Source: Clostridia bacterium
Lineage (GTDB): Bacteria > Bacillota > Clostridia > TANB77 > CAG-508
NCBI GenBank assembly: GCA_017515985.1
Contig: JAFWDV010000008.1
Location: forward strand, 6,470-70,469
DNA: 64,000 bases
Direction: 5' to 3'
The notes under the pieces are model-generated. The model made no database searches. It saw only the letters and a list, made by a program, of their open reading frames with translations, and was not told the origin of the DNA. Positions within the stretch are counted from its first letter, which is position 1; each line of letters opens with the position of its first letter. This document shows, piece after piece, positions 44,647 through 61,017 of this stretch. The translations under genes were made by a program, and so were the position numbers.

Positions 44647-47600
44647 CTATCCTATACTATCTCCCAATAAAACTGTATATTTATCTTGTGGTATTATTAA
44701 ATCTTCTTCTTCATATTCATCTAATGAAGCAATAATATGGATATTTTGTAAATTTTCAAAGCTTTCAAATATTTTTAAATCTTCTTCTTCGATTCTATCC
44801 ATTCCATCCTCCATATTCATCAAAATATAAATATCGGTTTTAATCATAGGACTTATACCTTTTACATCGTATAATAATCTCCTAGGTATGTACATTGGAA
44901 GACCAGAATCATTACATTCTCTATATTCTTTTAGCTCAATTGTTAACAAATCATCATCTGCTCTTACATATAAATCTTTCCAATAATTCTTTGCAATTTC
45001 ATATAGCTCTCTATTGGTAAACTTAAGTGTTGGAAATTCCTCTTCAAAATCATCTGGAGGTATTAGGTCTTCACTAAAATCAACATCTATCATATCATAT
45101 CCAGACATTCTTCCTACTGTATATTTAGCAGAATAATCTCCTTGTGTAACCAATGAATAATACTTTTCTGGGACCATTATATATGAATTATTTTCTAAAC
45201 CATAATCTCTTTCTTCAAGTCTGGATTGTAATACATATATATCACTAACTAAATAAAAATCCTTTGTCTCTTTTGAAATTGAATTACCAAATGTATTAGC
45301 TACAACTATATTATCCTTATCAATTGTATTAGAATTCTTTAACCTATTCATATATGGATTATATCTTACAATTATTCCATCATTGTCTAGATTTCTATCA
45401 ATTTTAAATGTTATATTTGTTGTAACTGTATCGTAGCTCCAATATGATACCACCGTATCTTCGTCTACAGGAATTATAAATGATCTTTTATTTATTTTGT
45501 TTCCATTTACTTTTACATTAACTGAACCAATTTCCTTAGAGTTTATATAGTTAGCTAAATTCATTTCTAATCCGCTCTCATCAGGAATTGCAATTACTAT
45601 ATTTTCTTCCTTGGTATCCTTTTCCACGATGATAGATGGGCCGTCTTCAGTCATTCTCTCCCCATCATAAGAATCAATATACAATGTCCATAAAACCTTA
45701 TCAGCAAATTTATCTATGTTTTTTATGTTATTTTCCTTTAAGTTAACTTCTGCAACTGATTTTACATTGAACAAGTCAAAATCATCGCTCAAATCACAGT
45801 CAATTAATGTTATGAATACAAGATTCATATCGCTTAAGTCACCTGTCAAATTATAATTATGAGACAAATTGATATTCTTTAAACCTACTATTTCTTTAAG
45901 AGAAGAAATATCGCCTAACTCACAATTCTCAAGAAAAATACATGATGCATTTTTCAATTGTCCAAGATTTGTAATACCTTTATTATTAGATAAACTATAT
46001 GTAACTCCAAAGAATTCACTGTCGACTTCCATAAGCTCCATTTCTCTTCTAATATCATCCTCTGTTATTGATTCAATGTATATTTCCCCAGCATCTTTGA
46101 TATTACATCCGTCTAAAACAATATAAAAAGTATTTTTTAACTTTCTAATTGGTTCAAAATTACTAATTTCTGAGTTGTTTGATAAATCTATGCTATATAT
46201 TGTTGCTTCTTCCAATCCAGAAATATCTTTTAATTTATTGTTAGATAAATTGATATAATCCAAATTTTCCATCTTCAGAATATCCTTTAGTGGATCTACG
46301 GATTCAATTCCATTATCACTTAAATCTAGATAACCTAGATTTTTAAGATTTGCTATTTCACTATAATCCTCAATATAATTTCCTTTCAAATCTAATGAAA
46401 ATATATCTTTATATTTATCACTATTCTCCATAGAAGTAATTCCACAATAAGCTAATGATAAATTGTCTTCAATCTTCAGCTCTCCATATCCAGTAATACA
46501 ATCATTTCTATCTAATTTTAGTGTACTAAACTTAACATCTTTTAATGATGAGATGTCTTTTATTTCGTTATTTGATAAATCAAGACTTACACCATCATTT
46601 AAGTATTTCTCTAAGCCATCAATACTTTTTATATTGTTACCTGATAGATTAACTTTAAATGTTGCATTTTTAAAGAATATTTCAAATTCATCTATTTTTT
46701 CCATATTAAAGTTTCTGTCCGATAAATCCAAATACTTACTGATAGTTTCTTTTCTTAAATATTCATTTCCATCTATACTAACTATATCACTTCCATAGTA
46801 ATCTCTTGCAAAATCACGTGCGCTTTTTCCTAATTTATCTATATCAATTAAATCAGATAGATTATTTACTGATACAATTCCAGACAAACCACTATGTACT
46901 CTACAGTCTTCATATGAAATATAAAAGTATCCGCCATCTCCCCAAAATGTACCCCAAGAATTTAATGCAATATATGCACCATCTTTTTCTGGCACGTTTC
47001 CTTTTGGAGATTTAAAGTTGTTTCTTGAATAGTTATCATCCCATCCAACTATTGAAACAGCATGTCCACCTCTACTACCTTCTATATCCTTATAATCTTT
47101 CATATAAAGGTTCATATCATAATCAGGAGCTATTATTTCGGTATATATCGATCCATAATTCATAATGTGCGTTTTCACTGCAGTTTGCAAATCTTTAAAC
47201 TTCCTGTCATACTCTTCTTGAGACATCTCTTCATATCTGTAGAATGTAGGAAATTCGGCATACTTTGTTATATATATATTCTCTTTTGGTGTATGGTAAA
47301 AAGTATTATATTCATAGTCTTCATACACATTTAAAGGTACTTCCTCTTCTAGTACATATCCTTTATTTTGTTCATTATACTGTTTTATATTGGCGAAATA
47401 ACCACCACTATTCTCATCTCTACCTCCAACATTCAATAACTTTGATGTCATATAATCTATGTGACTTTCTGATATGTCATAATACTCGCCTTTTGTTAAT
47501 GCAAGGTTAGTTTCCAATGATTTGACAGAAGCAAAATCCCAACATAAACCAAATTGTCCTTGATTTTCAACTTTAACATTTATCTTGTCTTTCAAATTAA

Positions 47601-48024
47601 ACTTTTTGGGCAATACTTCCTTATTATCATCTTCTTTTTTATCTTCCTCTAAAACATATTCTATGCCTAAATCTTCTTTCTGATCTTCCTTAATTGTTTC
47701 AAGTTCGCTAAACTCAATCTTCTCTTTTCTTGGTATAGCTTCTACTTTTTTCTTTTCTTCATCAGATAGCTTTAAGTATTCTTTATATGCCTCAGAATAA
47801 TTCTCCTCTTCACTGAACTCATCATCAGACTCTACTTTCTTAATTTTTTCAGCTATCTCTTTTCTCTCTGCAACCGTTTTCTCGATTTTAGCTTTCTCAG
47901 CCGTTCTTTCCCTTGCCTTTATTGTATTTGCAATATTATTTCCAACTAGCAAACCAAGCATTACGGCAACAATTGCGCCGACAATAATAATAACAATTTT
48001 CCTTTTAGTAAAAAAATTTCTCAT
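44647..48024 (-). CDS. Membrane-anchored papain-family (C1) cysteine peptidase fused to leucine-rich repeats (1125 aa).
   Basis: N-terminal signal-anchor. C1 catalytic triad motifs QGQFGLCWDFAS (Cys), GHAVSIVGWDD (His), NSWGTFWGDGGYFYIS (Asn). Multiple LDLSNNxIxDIS LRRs. Confidence 0.75.
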   Translation of the reverse strand: MRNFFTKRKIVIIIVGAIVAVMLGLLVGNNIANTIKARERTAEKAKIEKTVAERKEIAEKIKKVESDDEFSEEENYSEAYKEYLKLSDEEKKKVEAIPRKEKIEFSELETIKEDQKEDLGIEYVLEEDKKEDDNKEVLPKKFNLKDKINVKVENQGQFGLCWDFASVKSLETNLALTKGEYYDISESHIDYMTSKLLNVGGRDENSGGYFANIKQYNEQNKGYVLEEEVPLNVYEDYEYNTFYHTPKENIYITKYAEFPTFYRYEEMSQEEYDRKFKDLQTAVKTHIMNYGSIYTEIIAPDYDMNLYMKDYKDIEGSRGGHAVSIVGWDDNYSRNNFKSPKGNVPEKDGAYIALNSWGTFWGDGGYFYISYEDCRVHSGLSGIVSVNNLSDLIDIDKLGKSARDFARDYYGSDIVSIDGNEYLRKETISKYLDLSDRNFNMEKIDEFEIFFKNATFKVNLSGNNIKSIDGLEKYLNDGVSLDLSNNEIKDISSLKDVKFSTLKLDRNDCITGYGELKIEDNLSLAYCGITSMENSDKYKDIFSLDLKGNYIEDYSEIANLKNLGYLDLSDNGIESVDPLKDILKMENLDYINLSNNKLKDISGLEEATIYSIDLSNNSEISNFEPIRKLKNTFYIVLDGCNIKDAGEIYIESITEDDIRREMELMEVDSEFFGVTYSLSNNKGITNLGQLKNASCIFLENCELGDISSLKEIVGLKNINLSHNYNLTGDLSDMNLVFITLIDCDLSDDFDLFNVKSVAEVNLKENNIKNIDKFADKVLWTLYIDSYDGERMTEDGPSIIVEKDTKEENIVIAIPDESGLEMNLANYINSKEIGSVNVKVNGNKINKRSFIIPVDEDTVVSYWSYDTVTTNITFKIDRNLDNDGIIVRYNPYMNRLKNSNTIDKDNIVVANTFGNSISKETKDFYLVSDIYVLQSRLEERDYGLENNSYIMVPEKYYSLVTQGDYSAKYTVGRMSGYDMIDVDFSEDLIPPDDFEEEFPTLKFTNRELYEIAKNYWKDLYVRADDDLLTIELKEYRECNDSGLPMYIPRRLLYDVKGISPMIKTDIYILMNMEDGMDRIEEEDLKIFESFENLQNIHIIASLDEYEEEDLIIPQDKYTVLLGDSIG

Positions 48025-48224
48025 TTGAACATCTCCTTCCGTACAATTATTATAGATGTCTATATCTTATGTAAATTAAACTTCACTCTTTATTATACAC
48101 CATTTTTCCAGATTTATCAAATCATGTCTCATATATATCGTTGATATTTATGTGATCATGCCTTATTTACTATTTCAAATGAACAAAAAAAGACAATATG
48201 TTGTACATACTGTCTTCTCATATA

Positions 48225-48250
48225 AATTTTGAGTCCGTCCCTATTTTCTT
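48225..48250. repeat. Degenerate single REP arm (GAGTCCGTCCC variant).
   Basis: AAATTTTGAGTCCGTCCCTATTTTC. Confidence 0.45.
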
Positions 48251-51200
48251 ACTGTGTATTTTGCTAAGAAGTTACCTTGTTTAATGTATGAATAGTATTT
48301 TTCAGCTACCTCTATATACGTCCTGCTTCCTGTACCTAGTTTCTTGTTGATGACTCTTGCAGGAACCGTATAGATATCTTTGCTCTCTAGCTCAAAATCA
48401 TTAGTTTCTTTAAAAACTCCGTTGCCATACAAATTTGCAGCTCTAATGTTATTCTTATCAATACTATCTGTGCTCTGTAATCTTGATAGATATGGATTAT
48501 ACATAACCTCTATTCCGTCGTTTTTCATATTTTTATCAATAACAAACTTAATTTTAACATTTCCTAAATCACGTGCATAGTAAGAAATAGTTGTATTGCT
48601 ATTAATTCTAATAGGTTTAATTATATTATCAGATTTCCCATTAATTTTTATATCTGATACATTGGTAATTTGATTTACCCTCGTATACTCCATAAAATTC
48701 ATATATAAATTATTTTCATCTGGAATTTTAATTTCTATTATATCTTCCTTTACTTCAGGTGTATTCTTTACTGAAATATATACTCCGTTTTTCGTGTATA
48801 GAGCTCCATCATAAGAATCCATAAACAATGTTCTAGTTACTTTTTCTACAAAATTTTCTATATCTGTTATATCGTTTTTGCATATATCCAAATACGTAAC
48901 AGAATCAACGTTAAACGCATCGAAATCATTTTTTAGTCCACAATCATTTACTGTGATTTTAGATAAGCTCTTGCCACTTAAATCGCCAGTTAAATTATGA
49001 TTATTTGATAGATTTATCTCTTTTAGATATTTGATTTGTTTAATCTCAGAAATATCTCCTAAGTCACAGTTTTCTACAGTAATTGTAGCAGCATTTTTTA
49101 ATGCTCCAAGATTTGATATTCCTTTATTCTCTGACAATATGTAATTGATTCCCAAACTTACACCATAGCCATTTCCTTCAGCTTTTTCAATGTCTTCCTC
49201 AGTAACTGACTCGATTAAGACATCTTTCGCATTCTTGATATCGCAGCTCTTTAGATATATTGTATATATTTTCTTAGATTTTCTTAATGGTTCATAACTT
49301 TCAATTTCAGTATTATATGATAAATCAACGATTGAAGCTTTTGAATTCTCAAGTCCAGAAATATTTTTCAATTTATTTTGAGATAAATCTATCTGAGTAA
49401 GTCCGTCTTTTTCAAGGATAACCATCACTGTATCAAGTGAATTTAATCCACAATTGCGAAGCTCTACGTAGTATAGCTCACTTAATTTTACAACCTCGCT
49501 ATAATCAGCAATGCTATTTCCACTTAAATTTAAAGACTTAAGATTTTTAAGATTCTCTGAGCTTCTAAAAGATGTAACAGCACAATTCTCTATTGATAAT
49601 CTGATTGATATATTTAAATTTTCGTATCCTCTTACACCATTATTTCCATCTAAAGTAAGCACGCTTACACTTACGTCTTTTAAGCAAGATACATCTTTTA
49701 TGTTGTTATTAGAAAGATTAATATTTACATTCTCTTTCTTAATCAACTTTTCAATTCCATCTATATTACTTAATTTATTATTTGATAAATTTATAGTATT
49801 TGCTTTATTAATAAAAGCCTTAAACTCATTAATATCATCTATATCCCTATTTGATAAATCAAGATTATTCGAAATAACATCTGGCCATAAATACTCTTCT
49901 CCATCAATTGTAACGATTTCATTGCTATATGTCTCGATGGCGTATTTACGCGCCTTCTCTCCTAATTTGCTAACATTTATCAAATCGGAATTTTTATTTA
50001 TTGATACTACCCCTGACATCTCTTTGTGAACTTTAAAATCTTCATAAGATATGTAGAAATATCCTCCATCTGCCCATTTTTCTCCCCAAGAATTTAGTGC
50101 TATGTATGCTCCATCTTTTTCTGGCACATTTCCATTTGGAGATTTGAAATTATCTCTAGAATAATTATCGTCCCATCCAACAATAGAAATTGAATGTGAT
50201 CCATCATTATCCTTTAAATCTTCTTTGTCTTTTGTATAATGATTTTCTCCATAATAAGGAGTGGCAATTGAAGCATATACTGAGCCATATTTCATAATAT
50301 GTGTTTTCACTGCTGTTTGTAGCTCTTTAAATCTATTTTCATAATCCTCTTGGGTGTTTTTATTTACAGTTGGAAAATCAACATACTTTGTTATATATAA
50401 ACTTTCTAACGGCGTATTATAAAAAGTATTGTATTCATAATCGTCGTATACATTTAAGGGAACTTCTTCCTCTGTAGCAAATCCTCTGTATGCTTGATTG
50501 TAGTTCTTCATATCTGAAAAGTTACCGCCACAATTTGCTTCTCTTTTACTTAATGTCATTAAATTTGAAGCCATATAATCAACATGACTTTCAGATAAAT
50601 CATATTTTTTTCCTTGCGTTAAAGCTAGATTCGTTTCAACACACTTTATAGCAGCAAAATCCCAGCATAAACCAAAGCCACCTTGATCTTCAACCTTAAT
50701 ACTAATCTCATCCTTTAAGTTGAATCTTTCTGGTAAAACTATATCGTCGTCCTGCTCTTGCTCGCTCTCTTCTTCGCTACTTTTATCCTCGCCTTTTTTA
50801 TCGTCGCTCTCTTTTTGCTCATCATCTTTCTTATCTTCTTGTTTGATGTCTTCCTTCTGATCTTCTATTATATTCTCAAGCTCACTGTAATCGATATTTT
50901 CTTTTCTAGGAACAGCTTCAACTTTTGCCTTGTCTTCGTCAGACAAATTTAAGTATTCTTCATATTCTTGTGAGTAATTGTTAGTATTACTTACACTAGC
51001 AGTTTTAACCTTTTCAATTTTCTTAGCTATTTCTACACGCTCTTGAACTTGATCCTCAATACTACCGTTTTCGATTATTTCATTACTTGTTTTTTTATCT
51101 TCCTCTTCTTTTGGTTTATTTTCAGGTGTATTCTTTTTAGCAATCTCTTTTTTCTCATTCTTCTGCTCTTCAACTACGCTTTTTTCAGCTTGTTTTTCTT

Positions 51201-51312
51201 TTGCCTTCATTGTGTTTGCAATATTATTTCCAACTACAACACTAATAAAAACTGTAATTGCTGCAACAATTATAAATACTATGACCTTATTCTTTGAAAA
51301 AAACTTCCCCAT
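48241..51312 (-). CDS. Membrane-anchored papain-family (C1) cysteine peptidase fused to LRRs (paralogue, about 1023 aa). The likely start is MGKFFSKN.
   Basis: QGGFGLCWDFAA, GSHSISIVGWDD, NSWGEKWADGGYFYIS. LRRs INLSNNKLSNIDG etc. Acidic Lys/Glu/Asp-rich linker. Confidence 0.75.
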   Translation of the reverse strand: MGKFFSKNKVIVFIIVAAITVFISVVVGNNIANTMKAKEKQAEKSVVEEQKNEKKEIAKKNTPENKPKEEEDKKTSNEIIENGSIEDQVQERVEIAKKIEKVKTASVSNTNNYSQEYEEYLNLSDEDKAKVEAVPRKENIDYSELENIIEDQKEDIKQEDKKDDEQKESDDKKGEDKSSEEESEQEQDDDIVLPERFNLKDEISIKVEDQGGFGLCWDFAAIKCVETNLALTQGKKYDLSESHVDYMASNLMTLSKREANCGGNFSDMKNYNQAYRGFATEEEVPLNVYDDYEYNTFYNTPLESLYITKYVDFPTVNKNTQEDYENRFKELQTAVKTHIMKYGSVYASIATPYYGENHYTKDKEDLKDNDGSHSISIVGWDDNYSRDNFKSPNGNVPEKDGAYIALNSWGEKWADGGYFYISYEDFKVHKEMSGVVSINKNSDLINVSKLGEKARKYAIETYSNEIVTIDGEEYLWPDVISNNLDLSNRDIDDINEFKAFINKANTINLSNNKLSNIDGIEKLIKKENVNINLSNNNIKDVSCLKDVSVSVLTLDGNNGVRGYENLNISIRLSIENCAVTSFRSSENLKNLKSLNLSGNSIADYSEVVKLSELYYVELRNCGLNSLDTVMVILEKDGLTQIDLSQNKLKNISGLENSKASIVDLSYNTEIESYEPLRKSKKIYTIYLKSCDIKNAKDVLIESVTEEDIEKAEGNGYGVSLGINYILSENKGISNLGALKNAATITVENCDLGDISEIKQIKYLKEINLSNNHNLTGDLSGKSLSKITVNDCGLKNDFDAFNVDSVTYLDICKNDITDIENFVEKVTRTLFMDSYDGALYTKNGVYISVKNTPEVKEDIIEIKIPDENNLYMNFMEYTRVNQITNVSDIKINGKSDNIIKPIRINSNTTISYYARDLGNVKIKFVIDKNMKNDGIEVMYNPYLSRLQSTDSIDKNNIRAANLYGNGVFKETNDFELESKDIYTVPARVINKKLGTGSRTYIEVAEKYYSYIKQGNFLAKYTVRK

Positions 51313-51479
51313 TAAAATAACCCCTCTCAAAAGTAACCTGAATAGACTACTTTTACGTAAAAAAAATACTCTTCAATTATACAACAAAATGCCATATTTT
51401 TCAACAATTACCAAAAAAGATGAACTCTTATTCCAGAATTCATCTTTTCTATCTTATTTATTTTATCACTAGCCAAGTC

Positions 51480-52844
51480 TTATTTAAGCTTCTTTTCAAT
51501 TAAATCTGCAATCTCTCTTGCCTTCTTTGTAATATAATCTTGGTCTTCTCCTTCAATCATAACTCTTACTAGTGGCTCTGTTCCTGAAGCTCTAATTAGC
51601 ACTCTTCCATTTCCATCAAACTCTTTATCAAGTTTGCTTATTGCATCTTTAATCTCTTCATCTTTATCAAAGTCGTATTTCTTTTCTGAAGAAACCTTAG
51701 CATTTATAAGAACTTGAGGATATGCCTTCATAATTCCAGCAACTTCAGATGCTTTTTTGCCAGATTCTAGAATTGCTCTTATAAGCATAAGTGATGTTAA
51801 AATACCATCTCCTGTTGGGTTATAATCAAGGCATATAACGTGACCTGATTGCTCACCACCAAGGTTGTATCCTTCTTTTAACATTTCTTCAAGAACATAT
51901 CTATCACCAACTTTTGTTTGAACAAAGTTTAAGTCATTTTCTTTGGCATATTTATTTAATCCAAGGTTACTCATAACAGTAGCAACAACTGTATCCTTAT
52001 TTAATTTTCCTTTTGATTTTAGATATTTAGAAATTACTGCTAATAGCTTATCTCCATCAATATCGTTTCCATTTTCATCAACAGCTAAACATCTGTCACC
52101 ATCACCATCATAAGCAATACCTAAACTACATTTTTTATCAATTACATATTGTTTAAGCATTTCTAAATGTGTTGAACCACATCCGTCATTTATATTAATT
52201 CCATTAGGTGTGTCATTTATTACGTAATGCTTAATACCAAGAGCTGTGAAAACTTTGTCTGCTACAACTGATGTTGCACCGTTTGCAGTATCTATTGCAA
52301 CCACAAAATCATCTCTATTTAGCTCTTCAAGTTCCTCTTCGAAATTTTTTCTGAAGAAATAAACATATTCATCTAACAAATCTGTAGCAATTTCAGAAAC
52401 ACCTATCTTGTCATTGCAAGCTGTTAATTCATCAATTTTTCCTGAATCCATAATCTCTTCGATTTCTTCTTCTAATTCATCAGAAATCTTCATTCCTTTA
52501 TTGCTGAAGTATTTTACTCCATTAAATTCAAATGTATTATGAGAAGCAGAAATAACAACACTGGCATCTGCTTTTAATTTTTTTGTTAAATACGCTACAC
52601 CTGGTGTAGGCATAACTCCTAATATTTTAACGTTTGCTCCATAGCTTAAGAAACCTGCAACCATTGCGCTTTCTATAAGAGTTCCAGATATACGTGTATC
52701 TCTTCCAATAAGTATAGTTGGAGCATGATCTGTATGCTTTGATAAAACACAAGCACCTGCCTTTGCAACTTTATAAACTAAAGCTGGCGTAAGCTCTGTG
52801 TTTGCAATTCTTCTAATCCCATCTGTTCCAAAATATTTTCTCAT
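51480..52844 (-). CDS. glmM: Phosphoglucosamine mutase. The likely start is MRKYFGTDGIRR at 52844.
   Basis: GTDGIRR N-terminus, SASHN phosphoserine loop, and C-terminal GDGDR region. Confidence 0.9.
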   Translation of the reverse strand: MRKYFGTDGIRRIANTELTPALVYKVAKAGACVLSKHTDHAPTILIGRDTRISGTLIESAMVAGFLSYGANVKILGVMPTPGVAYLTKKLKADASVVISASHNTFEFNGVKYFSNKGMKISDELEEEIEEIMDSGKIDELTACNDKIGVSEIATDLLDEYVYFFRKNFEEELEELNRDDFVVAIDTANGATSVVADKVFTALGIKHYVINDTPNGININDGCGSTHLEMLKQYVIDKKCSLGIAYDGDGDRCLAVDENGNDIDGDKLLAVISKYLKSKGKLNKDTVVATVMSNLGLNKYAKENDLNFVQTKVGDRYVLEEMLKEGYNLGGEQSGHVICLDYNPTGDGILTSLMLIRAILESGKKASEVAGIMKAYPQVLINAKVSSEKKYDFDKDEEIKDAISKLDKEFDGNGRVLIRASGTEPLVRVMIEGEDQDYITKKAREIADLIEKKLK

Positions 52845-53066
52845 TTTGTTTACCTCCAATTTGTTTTCTAGAGCGTATGTAAAATACATAACATGGTTAT
52901 TATACATTCTGACTCTACTTTCGTCAATATAATTATTTTTTTGCACACTGTTTTGCTATATTATGTCAAATATTGTCAAAATATGACGTACGATTTTACT
53001 TTACAAAACGCTGTTTCCGTTGTATTATGTCTATTGTAAATTTTTATTCAAAAAATTTTTTTTTCT

Positions 53067-53840
53067 ATGAAAGGAGTTTTATTCACATTGAAAAAGTTTT
53101 CTCAATTACAAAAAAAGTTGGATGTGCTTGAAGCGCAAAAATTTGATATTGGCTCTTTTGAAAATCTATCACTATTTCAGTTTCTAAAATATAAGAGCAT
53201 TATTTCTAAAAAAAGTAAGTTGAAAATGCAAATGAAAAAATCTTTATCTGAAGCACAAAAAATAGTTTCATCATACAAAAAATATAAAGCAAAGCTTATC
53301 GATAATAATTCAATTAACTGCCGTAAATATCAAAAATTGATAAAAAAAGCTGAATACGAGGCAAATCTAAAATTATTTAAGTTAGGATTCATCAGTAAGA
53401 AACCAATACCACCACAATTTCAAAATATATGTAAAAAAATAAACTTACCTATTTTCAATTTCTTCAAAAGATTCGCAAAAAATATTACATATGTAAAATC
53501 TACGTTCATCCCACAACAAATCGAAAAAGTCACATTGAATACAGTAAAAAATGGCATCCGTGGCTACAGAGCAATACAGTCTAACTTCAGACTATTTGGA
53601 AAGCATCTATCATCAAACGAATGTGCAAGACATATACAAAACATTATTAAAAAAGCACAAGCACAAGTAAATACTGAAGATATGATGAACCTTTGCAATC
53701 ATCAACATACAAATAAAGAATCTTTCTATAGAGCATCATTGAAATTTGATTTGCCAAATCCATCTGCCATTGTTCAGAAAAGCACTGCACAAAAAAGAGC
53801 ACCTATTATGAAAGCATCATATTTAGAGCCAGACATGTAG
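53067..53840 (+). CDS. Basic Lys-rich hypothetical protein (257 aa).
   Basis: Long ORF with no TM and no recognisable motif. Confidence 0.45.
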   Translation: MKGVLFTLKKFSQLQKKLDVLEAQKFDIGSFENLSLFQFLKYKSIISKKSKLKMQMKKSLSEAQKIVSSYKKYKAKLIDNNSINCRKYQKLIKKAEYEANLKLFKLGFISKKPIPPQFQNICKKINLPIFNFFKRFAKNITYVKSTFIPQQIEKVTLNTVKNGIRGYRAIQSNFRLFGKHLSSNECARHIQNIIKKAQAQVNTEDMMNLCNHQHTNKESFYRASLKFDLPNPSAIVQKSTAQKRAPIMKASYLEPDM

Positions 53841-53848
53841 TTATATAA

Positions 53849-54485
53849 TTACGGCAAAATTTCTTTACAATTTGTAGGCTTTTTAAAACTTAGATACCAA
53901 CTTATTCCATTATTGTTTTTATTTATATCTTCTAATCTTTCATACACCCCATTAATCGTTCTAGGTATAGGATTTATTACAGGCTGGCAAGGCACCCAAT
54001 TTGCCGGAGTTGCAGCTTCATTACAATCTGCCACTTGCAAAGCATTTATAGCTCTTAGAATTTCTGGTATAAATCTACCCACATTCAGCGGATATATAAG
54101 TATCAACCTAATTCTTCCATTTGGATCAATTACATAAACATTTCTAACAGTTTCTGTGCTACTTACACTACTTGAAATCATACCGTATTTTCTGGCTATT
54201 TCCCCGCTTCTATCTGCTATAATTGGAAATGGTACTTTAATTCCAGTTCTACAATAAATATCATAAATCCAGGCAAGGTGCGAATTATTGCTATCAATAC
54301 TTAGCCCTAGCAAATCCGTATTAAGATTTTGAAAATATTGGTATGCTTTAGAAAAAGCAATAAATTCTGTTGTACACACTGGGGTGAAATCTCCGTGGAT
54401 GCGAGAAGAAAACCAGCCACCTACCTTTGTAGTCTGTCAGCTTAACATTACCCATTGTAGATTCTGCTTCAAAATCAGGTGCCAT
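53849..54485 (-). pseudogene. 1-Cys peroxiredoxin (Prx6-like) interrupted by a +1 frameshift at about 54392-54400.
   Basis: The N-terminal frame reads MAPDFEAESTMGNVKLTDYKGRWLVFFSHPR. It then shifts into DFTPVCTTEF..., which is the ORF at 53849..54379. The Prx6 signature FTPVCTTE is split across frames. Confidence 0.65.
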
Positions 54486-54662
54486 TTGTCCGAAGCCTTA
54501 CATTTCCGTTCATCATAACTTCATAATCCATATGAAAAAACCTCCAATCATATTTTTACATATAATATGATTGAAAATCAGCTCTTGATACTAAAATCAA
54601 TTGTCAAATCAATATTCATGTGTTATAATGAGTCATATTTTTTTTGAAAGGAATGAAAGTGT

Positions 54663-55280
54663 ATGACAAAAAACACACATTTAGCCGCTGGAGTAGCATT
54701 ATCTATTGCAATGATTATGCCAAACGAACTGCAGTCCCTAGCTGTGTGCATATGTGGGGCGGCAGTCGGAAGTACAATACCTGACGTAGATGTTGCATCT
54801 TCAAAACCTCGGAAAGAGCTAAGTACAATTGTAGGCTTTTCTGTTGCAATGGTTACTGCCCTTGTTGTGCTAGAAAATGTTCTTAACATTGGTCTTTATC
54901 AGATGATTGAATCACACACTGCACTTTATCGGATTATTCTTGGATATGTAACCTTCATACTTCTTTGCGTATTTGGCACAACAACCAAACATCGAACTTA
55001 CACACACTCCATCGTAGGATTGATTTCCTTTACAGGGGCAATGTGGGTACTGTTTCCTGATATGACATTTCCGTTTTTCATAGGAATGTTATCTCATATT
55101 TGGTTGGATTTGCTAAACACAAAAAAAGTACGAGTATTATATCCAATAAAAAAATTCGGTATTGCATTTAAACTCTGTCATGCTGAAGGAAAGGCTAACA
55201 AAACAATCTGCATAATTAGTACACTTGTCATCGTTGTTGAATTAATCATATTCGCTCTGAATCTGATGAATGTAATTTAG
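54663..55280 (+). CDS. Membrane-bound metal-dependent hydrolase (YdjM/DUF457 family).
   Basis: Conserved His residues in TM context (HRTYTHSIVG, SHIWLDLLN). Confidence 0.65.
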   Translation: MTKNTHLAAGVALSIAMIMPNELQSLAVCICGAAVGSTIPDVDVASSKPRKELSTIVGFSVAMVTALVVLENVLNIGLYQMIESHTALYRIILGYVTFILLCVFGTTTKHRTYTHSIVGLISFTGAMWVLFPDMTFPFFIGMLSHIWLDLLNTKKVRVLYPIKKFGIAFKLCHAEGKANKTICIISTLVIVVELIIFALNLMNVI

Positions 55281-55284
55281 CAAA

Positions 55285-55336
55285 AGTGACAAAAAGAGCG
55301 GCACTCATTCATCTGAGTGCTGCTCTTTTATTATTA
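55285..55336. repeat. Direct-repeat copy 1 (terminator-like hairpin) bounding the 4-gene cassette.
   Basis: AGTGACAAAAAGAGCGGCACTCATTCATCTGAGTGCTGCTCTTTTATTAT. It matches 58076-58126 at 47 of 50 positions. Confidence 0.8.
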
Positions 55337-55337
55337 T

Positions 55338-55820
55338 TTATGTATCCTCTCTAAAATAATATAATTTATTAGAATCAGTATCATAAATTGCAACAGTATA
55401 GTTCCTGCTAACTCTATCAAAAATTTCATCAGACTCATGTTTATTTGCTGCCATATTGTTCCTATCTATTAGATACCAATACCCTTTATTTATTATTGGT
55501 ATTGACATCTCTTCTTCCGGAGGTCTATTTATATATTTTTGCAGTGTTTCATTCATAGGCAATTTATTCCAATATCCATTGTCTTTTATCTTTTGTACGA
55601 ATTTTTGTGCCTGCTTTTCGTTAAAATATACTTCTGCTTTCGTTTCACCATCCATATGGAAACCACCATGGCTATCTACACACGATATTTTTGCTGTAAG
55701 AGGTATTTTTATTTCTAAATCTGAAGAAATCATAAAATGCCAACCAAATACAATTTCAATAAAAACATAACACATTATTATAAAAAACAAAATGCCACAT
55801 GCAAAAAAAAATTTTTTCAC
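55338..55820 (-). CDS. Small single-pass membrane protein (160 aa) with an extracytoplasmic domain; last gene of the cassette.
   Basis: N-terminal TM FFFACGILFFIIMCYVFIEIVF. Abuts the upstream gene with a 0 nt gap. Confidence 0.5.
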   Translation of the reverse strand: MKKFFFACGILFFIIMCYVFIEIVFGWHFMISSDLEIKIPLTAKISCVDSHGGFHMDGETKAEVYFNEKQAQKFVQKIKDNGYWNKLPMNETLQKYINRPPEEEMSIPIINKGYWYLIDRNNMAANKHESDEIFDRVSRNYTVAIYDTDSNKLYYFREDT

Positions 55821-56864
55821 CTAATTCACCTCATAGTCATTAATTTCAAATTTAATATTTATATTATACTCCTTTATTACACCATATTCTACAGATATAT
55901 GTGCCAAGTTATATATCAAACTTGAGAACATGCTCTTTGGTACACTATTCGCATCCTTGTAATACTTAACAATATCTTTAAATTCCGTATAATCATATCT
56001 GTCAAACAAATAAATTGTTAAATTCCATTTATCATTTTCTTTTTTGCCTTTAACTTTAATACTTGCACCATGTATTGCATAGTATAAATCTTTATCTTTG
56101 AATACAATAGATTGATCAATCTTATCATCATTTGTAAATTCATCATGTTTATTACCATATTTTATGACTATTTCTTTTATCTTTTTTTGGAAATACTGAT
56201 CTCTTTCTATCTCATCAATTATAAGCCCATCTGTAATAAGAACATCACTTGTTTTTTTTCCCAATGAGCGCTGTAGCAAATCTGAAGAAATATCATAATT
56301 AGCAATTTTTCCACATTCAATTATCACCTGCCAAAACGCATATTGCATTGCTCGTGATGAATCCATATAAAATTGATTTGAATTTTTACTTATATTAAAT
56401 ATGTAACTAAAACCACCTGTTAAAATTTTTGTGAATAAATCTTTGTCTTTACTACTTTTTAATTTATTAAGATTTAAATTAAACTTCTGCTCCCTTTTGT
56501 ATAAGCTATAAGCCTCTTTTAATTTTATTTTAGTTGCAGTAACAAGCATTGAAAAACCACTTGTATTTCCAATTCGCGATATATCTTCTTTCAACTCAGA
56601 TTTTATTTGATTATAATCGCCATATTTTAACTTGTCTAAATACTGATATGTTAAATATCTATCAACAAGCCATACCTTTTGATCAGCATTTAAATTTTTC
56701 ATATTAGTTTGCTTCATAATACATTTATATAAGTACGACTCTCTATTTTTAACTTTTTTGGGAAGATCACAATTCAAAAGCTTGTATACGTTTAAAATGC
56801 ATCCGCTTCCAAATACAGTCTTTGTTTTCTTCATATCCTTTTTACACAATAAACATTCATGCAT
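55821..56864 (-). CDS. Hypothetical 347 aa protein with an N-terminal Cys cluster (CLLC...GSGC); cassette gene 3.
   Basis: Operonic with the PRTase and Rossmann genes. No family recognised. Confidence 0.5.
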   Translation of the reverse strand: MHECLLCKKDMKKTKTVFGSGCILNVYKLLNCDLPKKVKNRESYLYKCIMKQTNMKNLNADQKVWLVDRYLTYQYLDKLKYGDYNQIKSELKEDISRIGNTSGFSMLVTATKIKLKEAYSLYKREQKFNLNLNKLKSSKDKDLFTKILTGGFSYIFNISKNSNQFYMDSSRAMQYAFWQVIIECGKIANYDISSDLLQRSLGKKTSDVLITDGLIIDEIERDQYFQKKIKEIVIKYGNKHDEFTNDDKIDQSIVFKDKDLYYAIHGASIKVKGKKENDKWNLTIYLFDRYDYTEFKDIVKYYKDANSVPKSMFSSLIYNLAHISVEYGVIKEYNINIKFEINDYEVN

Positions 56865-56888
56865 AATAATATTTCCTCCCTATTCTTA

Positions 56889-57437
56889 TTAAAATAAGCA
56901 TATCTGCGTATAAGATTTAAGTTTTTTTTGAGGTAATAATGCTTTCAATTTACTGTTTAATGTTATATTAGAGCCTAAAAAAGTTTCTAACTCATCCATA
57001 TTCTTTATGTAATAAAATCTATCATTTTGCGTATAGTACAATATAACTCTTTTGCCATAATTCAATAAATTTACAATATTATTGAATGTTCCACGGCTCT
57101 TTCCATTCCATATCATAAATCCTATTTCTGCGTCTTTAACCATTTTTAAATCTTTTTCCGCATAAAAATAAAATCCCTTTTTGAATTTATCAACAACTAC
57201 ATTTTCAATCTGCCAATCACCATAATTATTTCGCGCTAAACCATTGCTTGCATATACTTTTACATTTTTGTATGATTTTTGTTGAAAATATTTCTGAACG
57301 CAACTGTCTACTCCATCTGCATCACCTATTAAAACATCGTATTTTTTCTCACATATTTTATCCAATTTTTCCGTTATCTTCTCATTTATTTCACGAATAA
57401 CTCTTGGTCCGGCAATAAAAACTTTCAACAATATCAC
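56889..57437 (-). CDS. Rossmann-fold protein resembling the SLOG / nucleoside 2-deoxyribosyltransferase (YpsA/NDT-like) superfamily; cassette gene 2.
   Basis: N-terminal KVFIAGPR (cf. YLAGP of the NDT family). GDADGVD glycine-rich loop. About 180 aa. Overlaps the upstream PRTase gene by 4 nt (ATGA). Confidence 0.4.
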   Translation of the reverse strand: MILLKVFIAGPRVIREINEKITEKLDKICEKKYDVLIGDADGVDSCVQKYFQQKSYKNVKVYASNGLARNNYGDWQIENVVVDKFKKGFYFYAEKDLKMVKDAEIGFMIWNGKSRGTFNNIVNLLNYGKRVILYYTQNDRFYYIKNMDELETFLGSNITLNSKLKALLPQKKLKSYTQICLF

Positions 57438-57997
57438 CCCTTAGTCTTTGTCATTGCAATACAATATATCTTTTTTACATTTATATCATTTTTTAATATT
57501 TTGCATGTTTCATTTAATGTTGCTCCTGTACTGTATAAATCATCAATTACAAGCACATTTGCAGGTTTATCTATATCTCCAATTTTTTTTATCATACCAC
57601 TTATATTGTATCCATCTTTTACCTGTAAATTGCTCTCTTTTGATAACAAATCTGTTCTACATTCCTTTTTTAGATATGCTGCAATTTCTTTGGAAATTTC
57701 AAACACTGGTTGATATTCTCTTAATTTGTTTGATGGTGGCACAGGAATAACTACATCTATCTTTTTACTTAAATTCCATCTATCTAATATATCTCTTAGC
57801 AAACACATTATTTTTTTGAGACTTTCTCTATTTTTTTGATATTTTAATTGGTATATTAATTCTCCAATTTCAGTTCTTGTATTTTCAAATCTTTCCTTTC
57901 CATTTTCATCATATCCGATAAAAATACTCTTTAGCATATGGTTGTCCAATACGATTCCCTCATCCCAAACACCATATATTCTAACTGGATTTAACAT
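57434..57997 (-). CDS. Phosphoribosyltransferase-domain protein (ComF C-terminal-like type I PRTase fold, no zinc ribbon); cassette gene 1.
   Basis: PRPP-binding loop VLVIDDLYSTGATLNE. Promoter-like TTGATA-17-TATTAT and RBS AAGAGGTG upstream (58020-58050). Confidence 0.6.
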   Translation of the reverse strand: MLNPVRIYGVWDEGIVLDNHMLKSIFIGYDENGKERFENTRTEIGELIYQLKYQKNRESLKKIMCLLRDILDRWNLSKKIDVVIPVPPSNKLREYQPVFEISKEIAAYLKKECRTDLLSKESNLQVKDGYNISGMIKKIGDIDKPANVLVIDDLYSTGATLNETCKILKNDINVKKIYCIAMTKTKG

Positions 57998-58075
57998 CTT
58001 TGAATCACCTCTTTTGTGGTTATAATATCACACTTTTGTTTGGTTATCAATGATTTTATTAATTATTTTATATCT

Positions 58076-58126
58076 TAGTGACAAAAAGAGCGGCCCCCAT
58101 TCATCTGAGTGCTGCTCTTTTATTAT
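58076..58126. repeat. Direct-repeat copy 2 bounding the 4-gene cassette.
   Basis: AGTGACAAAAAGAGCGGCCCCCATTCATCTGAGTGCTGCTCTTTTATTAT. Confidence 0.8.
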
Positions 58127-58127
58127 A

Positions 58128-58298
58128 CTAATTTTCATTATTTTTGTTATTCTTAGTTATTTTATCTAATTCGTCAGCTCTTTCCTTTTGCTTCGATAAA
58201 GGTATCCATCCAAAAAGCGATGAAATATATTCCCCATACTTTGTTTTATCTTCCGAAAAGTTAATCTTTTGATGTTTCTCTTTTTTGTTTTTGTCCAT
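58128..58298 (-). CDS. Small hypothetical protein (about 56 aa from MDKNKKEK).
   Basis: GGAGGTG RBS 5 nt before the internal ATG. The longer track ORF overlaps the PBP gene. Confidence 0.35.
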   Translation of the reverse strand: MDKNKKEKHQKINFSEDKTKYGEYISSLFGWIPLSKQKERADELDKITKNNKNNEN

Positions 58299-58347
58299 AT
58301 ATACACCTCCAATATTATTCATATTATGTGCATATATTTCGAATTTA

Positions 58348-60888
58348 TTATGGACCATCATCTTGCTCTTCGTCATCATCTGCGTCATTTCCAGTATTAA
58401 CCGTATTATCTACTGTATTATTTACCGTATTATTCTCAGTATTATTCTGCTTATTTGTAGTATTGTTTTGAGTAGTATTTGTATTTTCATTAGTTGTATT
58501 ATTAACCGTATTTTTATTTTGTTTATCGGTTGTATTCTTGTTAGTAGTATTAGTGCTTGTATTTGAACTTGTATTGTTAACTGTGTTCGAATTTGATGTA
58601 TTTGTTGTATTTGTAGTATTAACCGAATTATCAACTGTATTTTGATTACTGTTTACAGTATTTTTATTTGTTGTAGGCTTGCTCTTTTTGTATCCACTAC
58701 TGCATGACGTACATTGATCAGGTACTGTTCCAGATAGGAAATATTCTGTATACGTATCAGAGCAAGAACTTGTAGCTGTTTTACCTGTAGATGCACAAAT
58801 AGTTGCTTGTTTAACTTTACCATTTTGTTCAAATCTGGTTTTCGAAAGACCTGAATGTATATTTCTCATAACTGATGACCAAATGTTTACAGCTGGACTC
58901 TTGCCTTTGTACTGAATACTTTCATTTATATCATATCCATACCATGTAACAGCAGTATAATACGTTGTAAATCCACATAGCCATTTATCGTAATTATTAT
59001 TCGTAGTTCCTGTTTTCGCAGCAACATCCATCCCCTCTATTTTACAAGCTCTAGCTGTTCCACTAGCACCTTCAACAGGCTGTTTTAGAAGCTCTTTCAA
59101 TATATACGCAACTTCTTCTGAAAAGACTCTTCTTTTATCTTGTTTAGATTTAATAATAGTCTTTCCTTTTCCATCTTCCACTCTTGTGTAGAAAGTTGGC
59201 TCTATGTATTCACCATCGTTTGCAATCGTAGCGTACGCTGCAGCCATTTCTAATGGCGTTATACCTTTTTCAAGACCACCTAAAGCAAGCATTAAAGATT
59301 CATCTTTGTCCTGCAAAGAAGTTATACCCATCTTCTTCATGTATTTTACAGATTTTTTAGGACCAATCTGTTCCATCATTTTAACAAATGGAATATTCTG
59401 AGAAGACTCTACAGCTCTTCTAACCGTTATTTCACCAATATAATTTTCATTATTTGTTGGTGAATATCCATCAGGACTACCATCATCAAACTTAGTTGGT
59501 TCATCTACATACATAGTTGCTGTTGTAAATATTTTTTCGCTTATACCTGGAATTAGAACTGCCAATGGTTTTGAGGCTGAACCTGTTTGTCTAAAGCCTT
59601 GAGTTGCTCTATTAAATCCTCTTGATGTTTTTTTCTCGCCAAGACCACCCACACAGGCAACAACTTGTCCATTTGTGTGATCAATTATAACCATTGCGGA
59701 TTGTGAGGTATTTCCGGTGCTCGATGATTTTATAACATACTGCTCCTTTTTATATTCCTTTTCAAGACTATCTTGTATACTTTTATTTTCGGTACTATAT
59801 ATCTTTAATCCAGACATATATATGTAATTTGTAGCAAATTTCGAATCTATATGTTTATTTTTTGAAACATCTGCAACAAGCTCCGAAATCAATGCATCAG
59901 TATGATATGAATATACTCCATCTGATACGTTCTCAGGCTTTCCATTTTTAAATTTAAGGCCATCTTCTATCTCTTGCACAGCAGAATTATAATCATCCTG
60001 ACTAATATGATTTAAGTCAAGCATTTTCTTCAGTACAGTTTTTGATCTTTTCTTTATTCTTTCCGAATTATCTTTCTCCTTAAATGGATTATAAGAATTC
60101 GGAGAATTATTAATTCCAGCTAAAAATGCGCATTCTGCCAAGTCTAAATCCTTCACATTTTTATCAAAATAATACTTAGCCCCAGCATCTACTCCATAAG
60201 TATTTGGTGCGGTATAAATAATGTTTAGATATGATTCCAAAATTTCATCTTTAGTGCAAAGCATTTCTAACTCGCCTGCCCTAATCCATTCTTGAAACTT
60301 TCTACCTACAGAATTGTCATCATCCCCAGTTAAATTCTTTACTAGTTGCTGAGTTATAGTACTTCCTCCAAATGAAGATTTTCCAAAATGTGTTACATAT
60401 GTAGTTATAGCTCCAACGGTTCTTTTAAGGTCAACGCCTTTATGTTTATAAAACCTTTCGTCTTCAATATCGATATACGCATTTTTAAGATTATCTGGAA
60501 TATCAGATAAGGAAACATTGCTTGTATTACGTTCAGAGCCTAAAGTATCTAAAACATTACCTGAAGCATCGACAACCACCGAATGTTCATTTTTCATCAT
60601 TGGCACAACAGTATTTCCCCAATTAATATACGACCAAATAACATATATACTAAAAATCAGGTAAGCAATTACAAATAGTTTGTTAAATTTTTTTATAAAC
60701 CATTTTCTTTGCGGTGACATTTGTTTTTTAATTTGCTTTTTCTTTGGTTTTCTTTTTCTAAAATCTATATTATCTTCACGACTTATTCGATTATTACCTT
60801 TGATATTACTTCTAGTATTTGAGTGCCTGCTCCTTTGTTGCATTTTATCATTCTGAAGACGCGCTCTACTATTTCTATCATTCCTCAA
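58348..60888 (-). CDS. Class A penicillin-binding protein (transglycosylase + transpeptidase) with an Arg-rich N-terminus and an Asn/Thr-rich low-complexity C-terminal tail.
   Basis: GT51 motif GGSTITQQLVKN. Transpeptidase SxxK (GSASKP), SxN and KTGTT motifs. Confidence 0.85.
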   Translation of the reverse strand: MRNDRNSRARLQNDKMQQRSRHSNTRSNIKGNNRISREDNIDFRKRKPKKKQIKKQMSPQRKWFIKKFNKLFVIAYLIFSIYVIWSYINWGNTVVPMMKNEHSVVVDASGNVLDTLGSERNTSNVSLSDIPDNLKNAYIDIEDERFYKHKGVDLKRTVGAITTYVTHFGKSSFGGSTITQQLVKNLTGDDDNSVGRKFQEWIRAGELEMLCTKDEILESYLNIIYTAPNTYGVDAGAKYYFDKNVKDLDLAECAFLAGINNSPNSYNPFKEKDNSERIKKRSKTVLKKMLDLNHISQDDYNSAVQEIEDGLKFKNGKPENVSDGVYSYHTDALISELVADVSKNKHIDSKFATNYIYMSGLKIYSTENKSIQDSLEKEYKKEQYVIKSSSTGNTSQSAMVIIDHTNGQVVACVGGLGEKKTSRGFNRATQGFRQTGSASKPLAVLIPGISEKIFTTATMYVDEPTKFDDGSPDGYSPTNNENYIGEITVRRAVESSQNIPFVKMMEQIGPKKSVKYMKKMGITSLQDKDESLMLALGGLEKGITPLEMAAAYATIANDGEYIEPTFYTRVEDGKGKTIIKSKQDKRRVFSEEVAYILKELLKQPVEGASGTARACKIEGMDVAAKTGTTNNNYDKWLCGFTTYYTAVTWYGYDINESIQYKGKSPAVNIWSSVMRNIHSGLSKTRFEQNGKVKQATICASTGKTATSSCSDTYTEYFLSGTVPDQCTSCSSGYKKSKPTTNKNTVNSNQNTVDNSVNTTNTTNTSNSNTVNNTSSNTSTNTTNKNTTDKQNKNTVNNTTNENTNTTQNNTTNKQNNTENNTVNNTVDNTVNTGNDADDDEEQDDGP

Positions 60889-60950
60889 TAAAAATCACCT
60901 TCTATTAATTTTCTGCCATAATTTTATCATTGTAAGATTTATTTTGCAAA

Positions 60951-61017
60951 TCAGAAATTTAAGGACGGAGGAAAACTTCCTAAATGGAAATTTTTTCCTC
61001 CGTCCCCAAAATTTTTA
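60951..61017. repeat. REPIN-like element (variant left arm AAGGACGGAGG, perfect right arm).
   Basis: GAAATTTAAGGACGGAGGAAAACTT ... GAAATTTTTTCCTCCGTCCCCAAAATTTTT. Confidence 0.75.

Follow-up and report, generated by a model that had tools for sequence, protein, structure and literature searches.

Does a compact block of genes between two direct repeats form a single defence system? We address this question for a locus in a 64,000-nucleotide stretch of DNA (the window) from the metagenome-assembled genome (MAG) of an uncultured gut Clostridia bacterium, whose proteins are named "MAG: hypothetical protein IKE01_... [Clostridia bacterium]". Four tightly packed open reading frames (ORFs), here called g1 to g4, occupy the minus strand at 55338-57997 between two copies of a 50-nt direct repeat. 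An initial annotation had described this minus-strand block between terminator-hairpin repeats, and the description was confirmed, as both repeat copies fold as hairpins. Its reading of the four genes as one nucleotide-centric defence module has to be revised. We consider it probable that the block is a small composite islet, made up of a toxin-antitoxin pair of the ShosTA/PsyrTA kind (g1 and g2, module A) and a colicin M-like toxin-immunity pair (g3 and g4, module B). The four genes are:

57434-57997, minus strand: g1, 187 aa, stand-alone ComF-type phosphoribosyltransferase (PRTase), putative toxin
56889-57437, minus strand: g2, 182 aa (179 aa from the more likely TTG start at 57428), single-domain SLOG fold, putative antitoxin
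55821-56864, minus strand: g3, 347 aa
55338-55820, minus strand: g4, 160 aa, N-terminal membrane anchor and extracytoplasmic domain of ~130 aa, putative immunity protein for g3

Independent occurrence of the two gene pairs

The gene content of all fetched loci was determined by exact-protein look-ups and tblastn, with the following outcome:

g1, g2, g3 and g4 together: contigs of the same species only (L001-L004, L021-L023)
g3 and g4 without g1 and g2: five contexts (L005-7, L008, L009-10, L011-12, L069-70)
g1 and g2 without g3 and g4: four contexts (L013-15, L017-18, L019-20, L065-66)
g2 alone: two contexts (L016, L063-64)

Across the 11 contexts examined from outside this species, the two pairs are thus never found together. 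Since each pair occurs without the other in every other context, the four genes are two unrelated two-gene modules lying side by side and not one system, as had been claimed. Their juxtaposition is specific to one species and shows no sign of functional coupling. In the other contexts, g3 homologues share 47-62% identity with g3 and are directly followed by a g4 homologue (28-49%) in five of five cases. The g2 homologues are 54-61% identical to g2, and in the listed pair contexts a PRTase 44-74% identical to g1 lies 5' of them. L016 and L018 are otherwise syntenic and differ in the presence of the PRTase. A 340-aa protein encoded after g2 in L016-18 was considered as a g3 relative and turned out to be unrelated to g3. 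At 6048-6531 of L069, the g4 homologue is split over two reading frames, due to either a frameshift or an assembly error.

The arrangement within the window could be taken as an argument for a single integrated defence system, in which the PRTase and SLOG proteins would make or sense a nucleotide signal and g3 and g4 would act as effector and membrane component. The four genes are tightly packed, no terminator was found between g2 and g3, one promoter-like site lies upstream, and a single pair of repeats brackets the whole block. Furthermore, SLOG domains sense nucleotide signals in other systems, for example in ThsA. The initial annotation gave the junctions as an ATGA overlap followed by gaps of 24 and 0 nt. 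Both gaps were reproduced, the overlap between g1 and g2 reads GTGA (the g1 stop codon over a GTG), the 24-nt gap between g2 and g3 contains GGGAGG, and the GTG of g4 directly abuts the TAG of g3. A Shine-Dalgarno sequence is present at both the g2-g3 and the g3-g4 junction, and the two modules are probably co-transcribed here from one promoter. However, besides the separate occurrence of the pairs, each pair has its own conserved internal coupling, and the g3 domain is also found on Rhs toxins that have dedicated membrane proteins encoded downstream, an arrangement with a self-sufficient toxin-immunity logic. We therefore regard one integrated system as very improbable. Tight packing and flanking repeats do not prove a single system.

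Module A, a minimal phosphoribosyltransferase and SLOG pair

The description of g1 as a stand-alone type I PRTase with a phosphoribosyl pyrophosphate (PRPP) loop and without a ComF zinc ribbon held up. The protein passes the Pfam model PF00156 (E 1.8e-6, 27.8 bits against a threshold of 26.3), it has neither an N-terminal Cys cluster nor a helicase, and its 187 aa are filled by the PRTase domain. The PRPP loop is intact and carries the DD pair (D152/D153):

57515-57556, minus strand: PRPP loop VLVIDDLYSTGATL of g1, aa 148-161

The best match of g1 in any library was the PADLOC model of PsyrT (E 7.1e-12), covering the PRTase part only (model positions 535-685 of 689), followed within PADLOC by ShosT (5.1e-8) and the retron PRTase_III-A (1.2e-5). 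Housekeeping PRTase and ComF models stayed far below their cut-offs, as for TIGR00201 with 28 bits versus 233.

For g2, the earlier comparison with SLOG or nucleoside 2-deoxyribosyltransferase enzymes, drawn from its KVFIAGPR motif, stood in its first half. An AlphaFold2 model built with 30 homologues (pLDDT 90.6) shows a SLOG fold consisting of a single domain of ~180 aa, with YpsA as the second-best structural match. The identity as a nucleoside deoxyribosyltransferase was rejected, as neither PF05014 nor the closest fold supported it. The TTG at 57428 is the likelier start codon and yields MKVFIAGPR, the N-terminus shared by most homologues and chosen in the NCBI annotation. Conserved motifs comprise FIAGPR, GDADG(I/V)DS and GFMIWNGxS(K/R)GT. 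Searches returned no sequence-family match for g2, and the Pfam YpsA model was not matched either. The last ~15 residues (56889-56940) have a low model confidence (pLDDT about 55), although their end, ...Q-x-C-L-F, is conserved across the family.

Two characterised systems share this combination of folds. ShosTA of Escherichia coli (PMC11961720, PMC12961424) and PsyrTA/RqlHI (PMC4670107; Millman et al. 2022 preprint) both consist of a PRTase-domain toxin and a DprA-like antitoxin, in line with the initial annotation, which had placed PRTase and SLOG pairings in phage-defence biology. In these systems, mutations of the PRPP-loop aspartates abolish ShosT and RqlH toxicity, and the unstable C-terminus of ShosA frees ShosT once synthesis stops. 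Like ShosTA, the pair studied here combines a PRTase with an intact PRPP loop (DD) and a DprA-like Rossmann (SLOG) domain, and the antitoxin of PsyrTA/RqlHI likewise contains a DprA/MoCo-carrier-like region, which corresponds to SLOG. The accessory domains differ. ShosT (424 aa) carries an N-terminal pyrophosphatase-like domain (residues 1-164) and PsyrT a RecQ-like helicase in front of its C-terminal PRTase, whereas g1 has neither of them. ShosA has an N-terminal SAM domain and PsyrA/RqlI a C-terminal helix-turn-helix (HTH), both absent from the ~180 aa of g2; binding of single-stranded DNA and of RecA are features of ShosA.

The claim of an undescribed arrangement did not survive. A gene pair of a YpsA-family SLOG protein and a PRTase is noted as a comparative-genomics observation in PMC6459960 (citing Burroughs et al. 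2015); it resembles g1g2 in that a SLOG protein is encoded beside a PRTase as a conserved pair, with the difference that g2 does not match the Pfam YpsA model. Moreover, tblastn detected g2 relatives on 100 plasmid records. On pLI100 of Listeria innocua the pair adjoins the rep gene and consists of a "ComF family protein" sharing 39% identity with g1 and, after it, a hypothetical protein sharing 49% with g2, and a Rhizobium plasmid encodes a pair annotated as "ComF family protein" and "addiction module antidote protein". Overall, the pair was kept in five of seven chromosomal contexts and on two plasmids. Chromosomal neighbours of the g1g2 relatives include Fic, an NTase/HEPN pair, an OLD-like ATPase and Bro-N; in viral contigs no g2 relatives were found.

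Two lineages possess g2 without g1, which is the decay pattern expected for a toxin-antitoxin pair. The orphan SLOG copies without an upstream PRTase are located at 5879-6001 of L016 and 4616-5001 of L063.

A physiological role of g1g2 was weighed against a role as toxin and antitoxin. The pair might serve in nucleotide salvage or signalling, act as a YpsA-like division regulator with a partner enzyme, or represent degenerate ComFC and DprA, and models for adenine PRTase and ComF indeed also recognise g1 at about 1e-6, and YpsA regulates cell division in Bacillus. We consider this quite unlikely, as the pair is patchily distributed and resides in variable regions and on plasmids beside rep or transposase genes, g1 matches the PsyrT and ShosT toxin domains best, and the variants that lost g1 and kept g2 (L016, L063) fit a pattern of toxin loss. 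The competence proteins ComFC and DprA themselves were rejected: g1 lacks the zinc-finger Cys cluster of ComFC, g2 is a single domain without the flanking domains of DprA, and the genes are absent downstream of the orthologous penicillin-binding protein (PBP) gene in related species. The housekeeping alternative that the initial annotation had named as its own refutation was thus checked, and the genes proved to be accessory.

Two results speak against assigning g1g2 to this kind of system. The PADLOC models of ShosA and PsyrA miss g2 itself, and neither the pyrophosphatase-like domain of ShosT nor the RecQ helicase of PsyrT is present in g1. The g2 homologue from Listeria did show weak ShosA (E 0.0026) and PsyrA (E 0.0053) matches over the GDAxGID motif. 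Taken together, and by analogy with the characterised systems, we conclude that g1g2 putatively represents the PRTase/SLOG type of toxin-antitoxin pair in a minimal form. With the accessory domains absent, it does not qualify as ShosTA or PsyrTA in the strict sense. By the same analogy, g1 would bind and consume PRPP and thereby poison purine or DNA metabolism, and g2, probably a labile protein, would counteract g1. The C-terminal tail of g2 may be a degradation tag, like the unstable C-terminus of ShosA. Toxicity of g1 would then be released once synthesis stops, for example upon phage infection or loss of the element, and any anti-phage role of the locus is putative.

Module B, a probable polymorphic toxin domain resembling colicin M

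For the second pair, the earlier description of g3 as a 347-aa protein with an N-terminal Cys cluster and no recognisable family, and of g4 as a 160-aa single-pass membrane protein, was borne out. Cysteines of g3 are located at positions 4, 7, 22, 32 and 48, and g4 contains one hydrophobic helix. Comparisons of g3 and g4 with Pfam, NCBIfam, PHROGs, PADLOC and PDB sequences yielded nothing usable, and g4 had no family match past any curated threshold. The idea that both proteins are nucleotide-centric was not upheld: g3 has a polymorphic-toxin domain that is shared with Rhs proteins and resembles colicin M (ColM), and g4 is its membrane-anchored partner. The relevant features are:

56715-56864, minus strand: N-terminal region of g3 with the Cys cluster C4, C7, C22, C48 (CxxC...GxGC), putative Zn-binding carrier part according to alignment and model
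55824-56387, minus strand: putative C-terminal toxin domain of g3, colicin M-like, aa ~160-347
56262-56279, minus strand: LLQRSL in g3 (aa 196-201)
56070-56090, minus strand: DLYYAIH motif in g3
55992-56003, minus strand: DRYD motif in g3 (D288, Y290, D291)
55740-55811, minus strand: membrane anchor of g4, aa 4-27

The Cys cluster is modelled as a β-hairpin, after which g3 is helical up to aa ~160. This N-terminus (CxxC...GxGC and helices) is conserved in distant relatives and matches no family. Close relatives of g3 (n = 93) are all ~350 aa long and all derive from Clostridia or gut assemblies, and a profile search of 1.84 billion representatives returned 734 relatives. They were not found on plasmids or in phage records; a pattern scan of viral contigs gave no usable result because the C-terminal-domain alignment was too divergent.

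The C-terminal half of g3 (aa ~160-347) recurs as the C-terminus of other proteins. In P0325 and P0362, RHS repeats and the Rhs core motif (RYYDxxxGRFxxxDP...DPxG) directly precede the domain, while P0364 has a partial match to a peptidoglycan-binding domain upstream of it. On two metagenome contigs (L056, L060), Rhs ORFs of 1500 and 1511 aa end in a g3-type domain, both starting within 80 nt of the locus start, so that their 5' ends may be cut. In both, the gene for a 183-aa protein with an N-terminal transmembrane helix overlaps the Rhs stop codon. A similar downstream protein is encoded in three further loci, giving five in total, and one of these proteins has a lipobox-like LITSC. The same architecture is seen in g4, which begins with MKK and continues with the hydrophobic helix (hydropathy maximum 2.60) and an acidic domain of ~130 aa. 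Because the domain recurs after Rhs cores together with downstream membrane-anchored proteins, we read it as a polymorphic-toxin domain with extracytoplasmic immunity; such a domain sits at the C-terminus of different carriers with the cognate gene directly downstream, and this is what was found. In all likelihood, g3g4 is thus a polymorphic toxin with its putative immunity protein. The toxin would be exported and act on competitor cells, and g4, anchored in the membrane with its domain outside, would protect the producer.

Two observations weigh against this assignment. First, g3 has no signal peptide, no transmembrane segment and no recognised secretion domain. Second, homology of g4 to the proteins encoded after the Rhs-borne toxins was not detected. 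The lack of export signals would fit a module for abortive infection or addiction that works inside the producer, where g3 would attack lipid-linked precursors, or some other target, from the cytoplasmic side. In several genomes, g3g4 neighbours are RelB, HicB, DUF1016/YhcG and Bro-N, hence toxin-antitoxin or defence-like genes, and stand-alone intracellular domains targeting lipid II have been proposed as immune effectors. We nevertheless hold an intracellular module to be unlikely, since g4 and the proteins following Rhs-borne toxins have domains outside the membrane, or a lipobox, which points to neutralisation outside the cell, and since Rhs proteins, which carry the same domain, are delivery vehicles. 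In addition, Sec-dependent targeting of Pectocin M1 to the periplasm leads to growth inhibition, and TelC requires an extracellular location for its activity.

Several further observations concern this pair in other genomes. In L005, L008 and L011 it lies directly upstream of a DUF1016/YhcG (PD-(D/E)XK-type) gene. L008 contains, at 4157-4342 and 2.7 kb upstream of the full g3-g4, a 56-aa ORF like the C-terminal third of g4 (45% identity), which looks like an orphan immunity fragment. The L011 toxin is a chimera of a RhuM-like N-terminus and the g3 C-terminal domain, and a 168-nt promoter/leader segment (5951-6118 and 7564-7731, 73-80% identical) lies on both sides of its toxin-immunity pair. 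Fusions of RhuM with the toxin (P0092, P0093) were rejected as a native architecture; they look like recombination products, because in P0007 a full g3 is preceded by what remains of the RhuM start.

Which activity might the domain have? The best structural matches of g3 are lipid II-degrading enzymes of the colicin M family, with four members of this one family among the top 13 of 48,164 chains. We compared the C-terminal-domain alignment by hhalign with a profile of the ColM catalytic domain, composed of ColM (sequence 100% identical to 2xmx) and two plasmid-encoded "lipid II-degrading bacteriocins". The score was 27.9 (P 0.0011), about 7 standard deviations above column shuffles (12.3 ± 2.1, maximum 19.8, 0/200 reaching it), and a reversed profile scored 12.5. 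The alignment pairs g3 ...KWNLTIYLFDRYDYTE with ColM ...GSWTYNGVVRSYDDKYDFNA, thereby placing D288, Y290 and D291 on D226, Y228 and D229, which are essential in ColM and belong to its signature DxYD(x5)HR. A relaxed alignment is collinear across the whole domain, and the order of secondary-structure elements is the same. D259 and H265 are also conserved in the g3 family.

Not all results agree with this relationship. The HR of the signature is absent throughout g3 and its Rhs-borne family. A Foldseek search of the g3 model against PDB gave no match at E ≤ 0.001, 14 C-terminal-domain sequences had no Pfam match at E up to 1, and a profile of the domain searched against PDB sequences likewise failed to connect it to ColM (PF14859) or DUF3289. 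The hhalign comparison with ColM as a single sequence was weak (P 0.023) and improved with the three-sequence profile. Moreover, the window's g3 carries Arg199 (LLQRSL) where at least 90% of its relatives have His (LLQHSL) and a few have Lys or Asn. If this His were catalytic, the present copy of g3 could be inactive; the alternation of H, R, K and N at position 199 would also fit a phosphate-contacting role. A genuine polymorphic toxin whose likeness to ColM is superficial, with a different activity and target, therefore has to be considered. We judge it rather unlikely in view of the clustering of one family among the top structural matches, the independent profile alignment that hits the catalytic DxYD and beats 200 of 200 shuffles, the shared order of secondary-structure elements, and an immunity topology as expected for a target in the envelope.

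On balance, we lean towards ColM-like cleavage of lipid II by the g3 domain. The most likely substrate would be lipid II or a related undecaprenyl-pyrophosphate-linked precursor, cleaved at the outer face of the membrane. This site of action would be in accordance with what is known of the family (PMC8469651, PMC5821083, PMC11148199): DUF3289, found in type VI secretion system effectors, is homologous to colicin M and exerts its toxicity in the periplasm, both ColM and the DUF3289 effectors work on the outer side of the cytoplasmic membrane, and the immunity proteins described for them comprise, among others, periplasmic proteins with a membrane anchor and integral membrane proteins. Module B shares with colicin M the aligned DxYD core, the C-terminal position in modular polymorphic toxins and a membrane-anchored, outward-facing putative immunity protein like Cmi. 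It differs in having no similarity to ColM at the level of hidden Markov models (HMMs) and no HR dyad. ColM carriers have a TonB-box and receptor-binding domains, whereas the g3 family has Rhs repeats or the Cys-cluster/helical N-terminus. The immunity families of the g3 and Rhs-borne domain are also new relative to ColM, and the host ranges differ, with ColM described from Proteobacteria and DUF3289/BtpeA from Proteobacteria and Bacteroides in the ColM reviews, compared with Clostridia for the g3 family.

A Gram-positive parallel is TelC/TipC of Streptococcus intermedius, a type VII secretion system (T7SS) LXG toxin with its partner; TelC cleaves lipid II within the inner wall zone, and its activity is confined to the outside of the cell (PMC5555719, PMC6193138). 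The activity proposed for g3 is similar, that of a Gram-positive inter-bacterial toxin cleaving lipid II outside the membrane. TelC has a fold of the lipocone superfamily and an LXG/T7SS delivery domain, and g3 has neither.

More speculatively, g3 and its Rhs-borne relatives might form an unrecognised colicin M branch of Gram-positive gut Clostridia, with a remodelled active site (DxYD with D259 and H265 but lacking HR) and two or more novel immunity families anchored at the surface. Export of the stand-alone form would then need no signal peptide and rely on its Cys-cluster N-terminus, and co-transcription with g1g2 could couple its release to toxin-induced death, in much the same way as colicins are released when the producer lyses. 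We regard this extended scenario as improbable in its entirety.

History of the locus and significance

The block is flanked by the following features:

58128-58388, minus strand: s86, small ORF 3' of the PBP1A gene
58077-58126, no strand: direct repeat copy 2, decayed terminator hairpin, 1 nt past the s86 stop codon
58022-58050, minus strand: promoter-like site TTGATA-17-TATTAT with TG extension, 5' of g1, consensus match
55285-55334, no strand: direct repeat copy 1, intact bidirectional terminator common to g4 and the convergent YdjM gene
54663-55280, convergent: YdjM gene, convergent with g4

The flanking repeat had been reported as 47 of 50 nt at 55285-55336 and 58076-58126; it is real, with 48/50 identical positions and ends shifted by 1-2 nt. 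Its 39-nt core, allowing up to 3 mismatches, occurs twice in 64 kb and in none of 100 shuffles. Both copies start 1-3 nt after minus-strand stop codons, namely those of s86 (1 nt) and g4 (3 nt). Copy 1 is a perfect 16-bp hairpin (-25.9 kcal/mol on the plus and -22.3 on the minus strand; z -7.6 and -6.7), is recognised as a terminator on either strand and can end both g4 and the convergent YdjM. Copy 2 folds less stably (-16.3 kcal/mol, and -16.6 on the minus strand), by ~6-10 kcal/mol, and both of its substitutions fall within one stem arm. The promoter sequence was found as described in the initial annotation but carries less weight than assigned there: promoter-like sites are at chance density in this AT-rich region (31 vs 28 ± 5.5 in shuffles), and since such sites are as frequent in shuffled sequence, a single match proves little. 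The G+C content of the cassette is 25-29%, compared to 31-37% in the flanks.

Five related species, the closest found, whose PBP is 69-76% identical, keep the order UPF0182-o189-sigma factor-PBP1A, and four of the five also have s86. In public assemblies s86 is 76 aa long and overlaps the 3' end of PBP1A, and the copies in the four species share 42-49% identity. It is probably a real gene, because it is conserved downstream of PBP in four related species; synteny stops right after it. One of the contigs (L029) ends just past the PBP gene, so the downstream comparison refers to the remaining four species. In three of these four, downstream genes were identified, and they are different each time: a histidine kinase, a metallophosphatase with a GyrI-like protein, or a U32 peptidase. 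Neither g1-g4 nor YdjM was found within 6-10 kb downstream of the orthologous PBP in the four readable species. As the block is absent from the orthologous locus of related species with differing downstream genes, it is accessory and located at a synteny break between PBP1A/s86 and YdjM.

An empty-site allele was not found: contigs encoding an identical YdjM protein all carry the cassette. The repeat sequence was seen only in contigs of the same species and nowhere in the JGI metagenome collection, and around the modules in other genomes no flanking repeats were detected apart from the 168-nt duplication in L011. We infer how the terminator came to be duplicated. In the simplest scenario, s86 and YdjM would once have been separated by one bidirectional terminator, which would have been duplicated upon arrival of the block; copy 2, no longer serving YdjM, would now be decaying.

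Two other ideas were rejected. A tRNA-linked island does not apply, as the window has no tRNA gene. A retron was likewise rejected, since no reverse-transcriptase ORF was present and no Rfam match was found in 52000-61000 at E up to 1, which agrees with the earlier statement that reverse transcriptase and msr-msd are missing.

Some neighbouring features deserve mention. The peroxiredoxin (AhpC / 1-Cys Prx) gene at 53849-54531 (minus strand) is broken: because an intact 244-aa orthologue (L005) aligns in three frames (54531-54493, 54494-54354 and 54421-53867), two frameshifts are implied near its 5' end, which make it either a pseudogene or the product of an error in the MAG assembly. A Lys-rich ORF of 257 aa with very low G+C (24-28%) lies at 53067-53840 (plus strand), with the phosphoglucomutase gene on one side and the peroxiredoxin gene on the other; it has no family match and is called in public assemblies. 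The C-terminus of PBP1A (58387-58670, minus strand) forms a long Asn/Thr-rich low-complexity tail with an acidic end (DDDEEQDD), encoded by degenerate 12-33-nt repeats (families D1, D2, D5 and D8). Two adjacent large ORFs of 1125 and 1029 aa (44647-51330, minus strand) have Peptidase_C1 and leucine-rich-repeat matches in the public annotation of the same contig and probably encode cysteine proteases that are secreted or located at the cell surface.

Neither of the two modules is new in kind. Module A represents a minimal and so far unstudied form of a known toxin-antitoxin/defence pair that comparative genomics had already noticed and that is present on plasmids of cultured bacteria; defence-finder models in current use overlook it, as they fail to detect the antitoxin. 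If our reading is correct, a PRTase/SLOG pair of ~370 aa in total, without helicase, pyrophosphatase, SAM or HTH domains, could reveal what the PRTase toxin and the SLOG antitoxin do in their own right. Module B would carry a known enzyme superfamily and a known genetic logic over to a domain family without a Pfam model and to Clostridia as hosts. The locus would thus offer two compact, clonable test cases, and a clostridial ColM-like branch would widen the known lipid II-targeting weapons of the gut microbiome.

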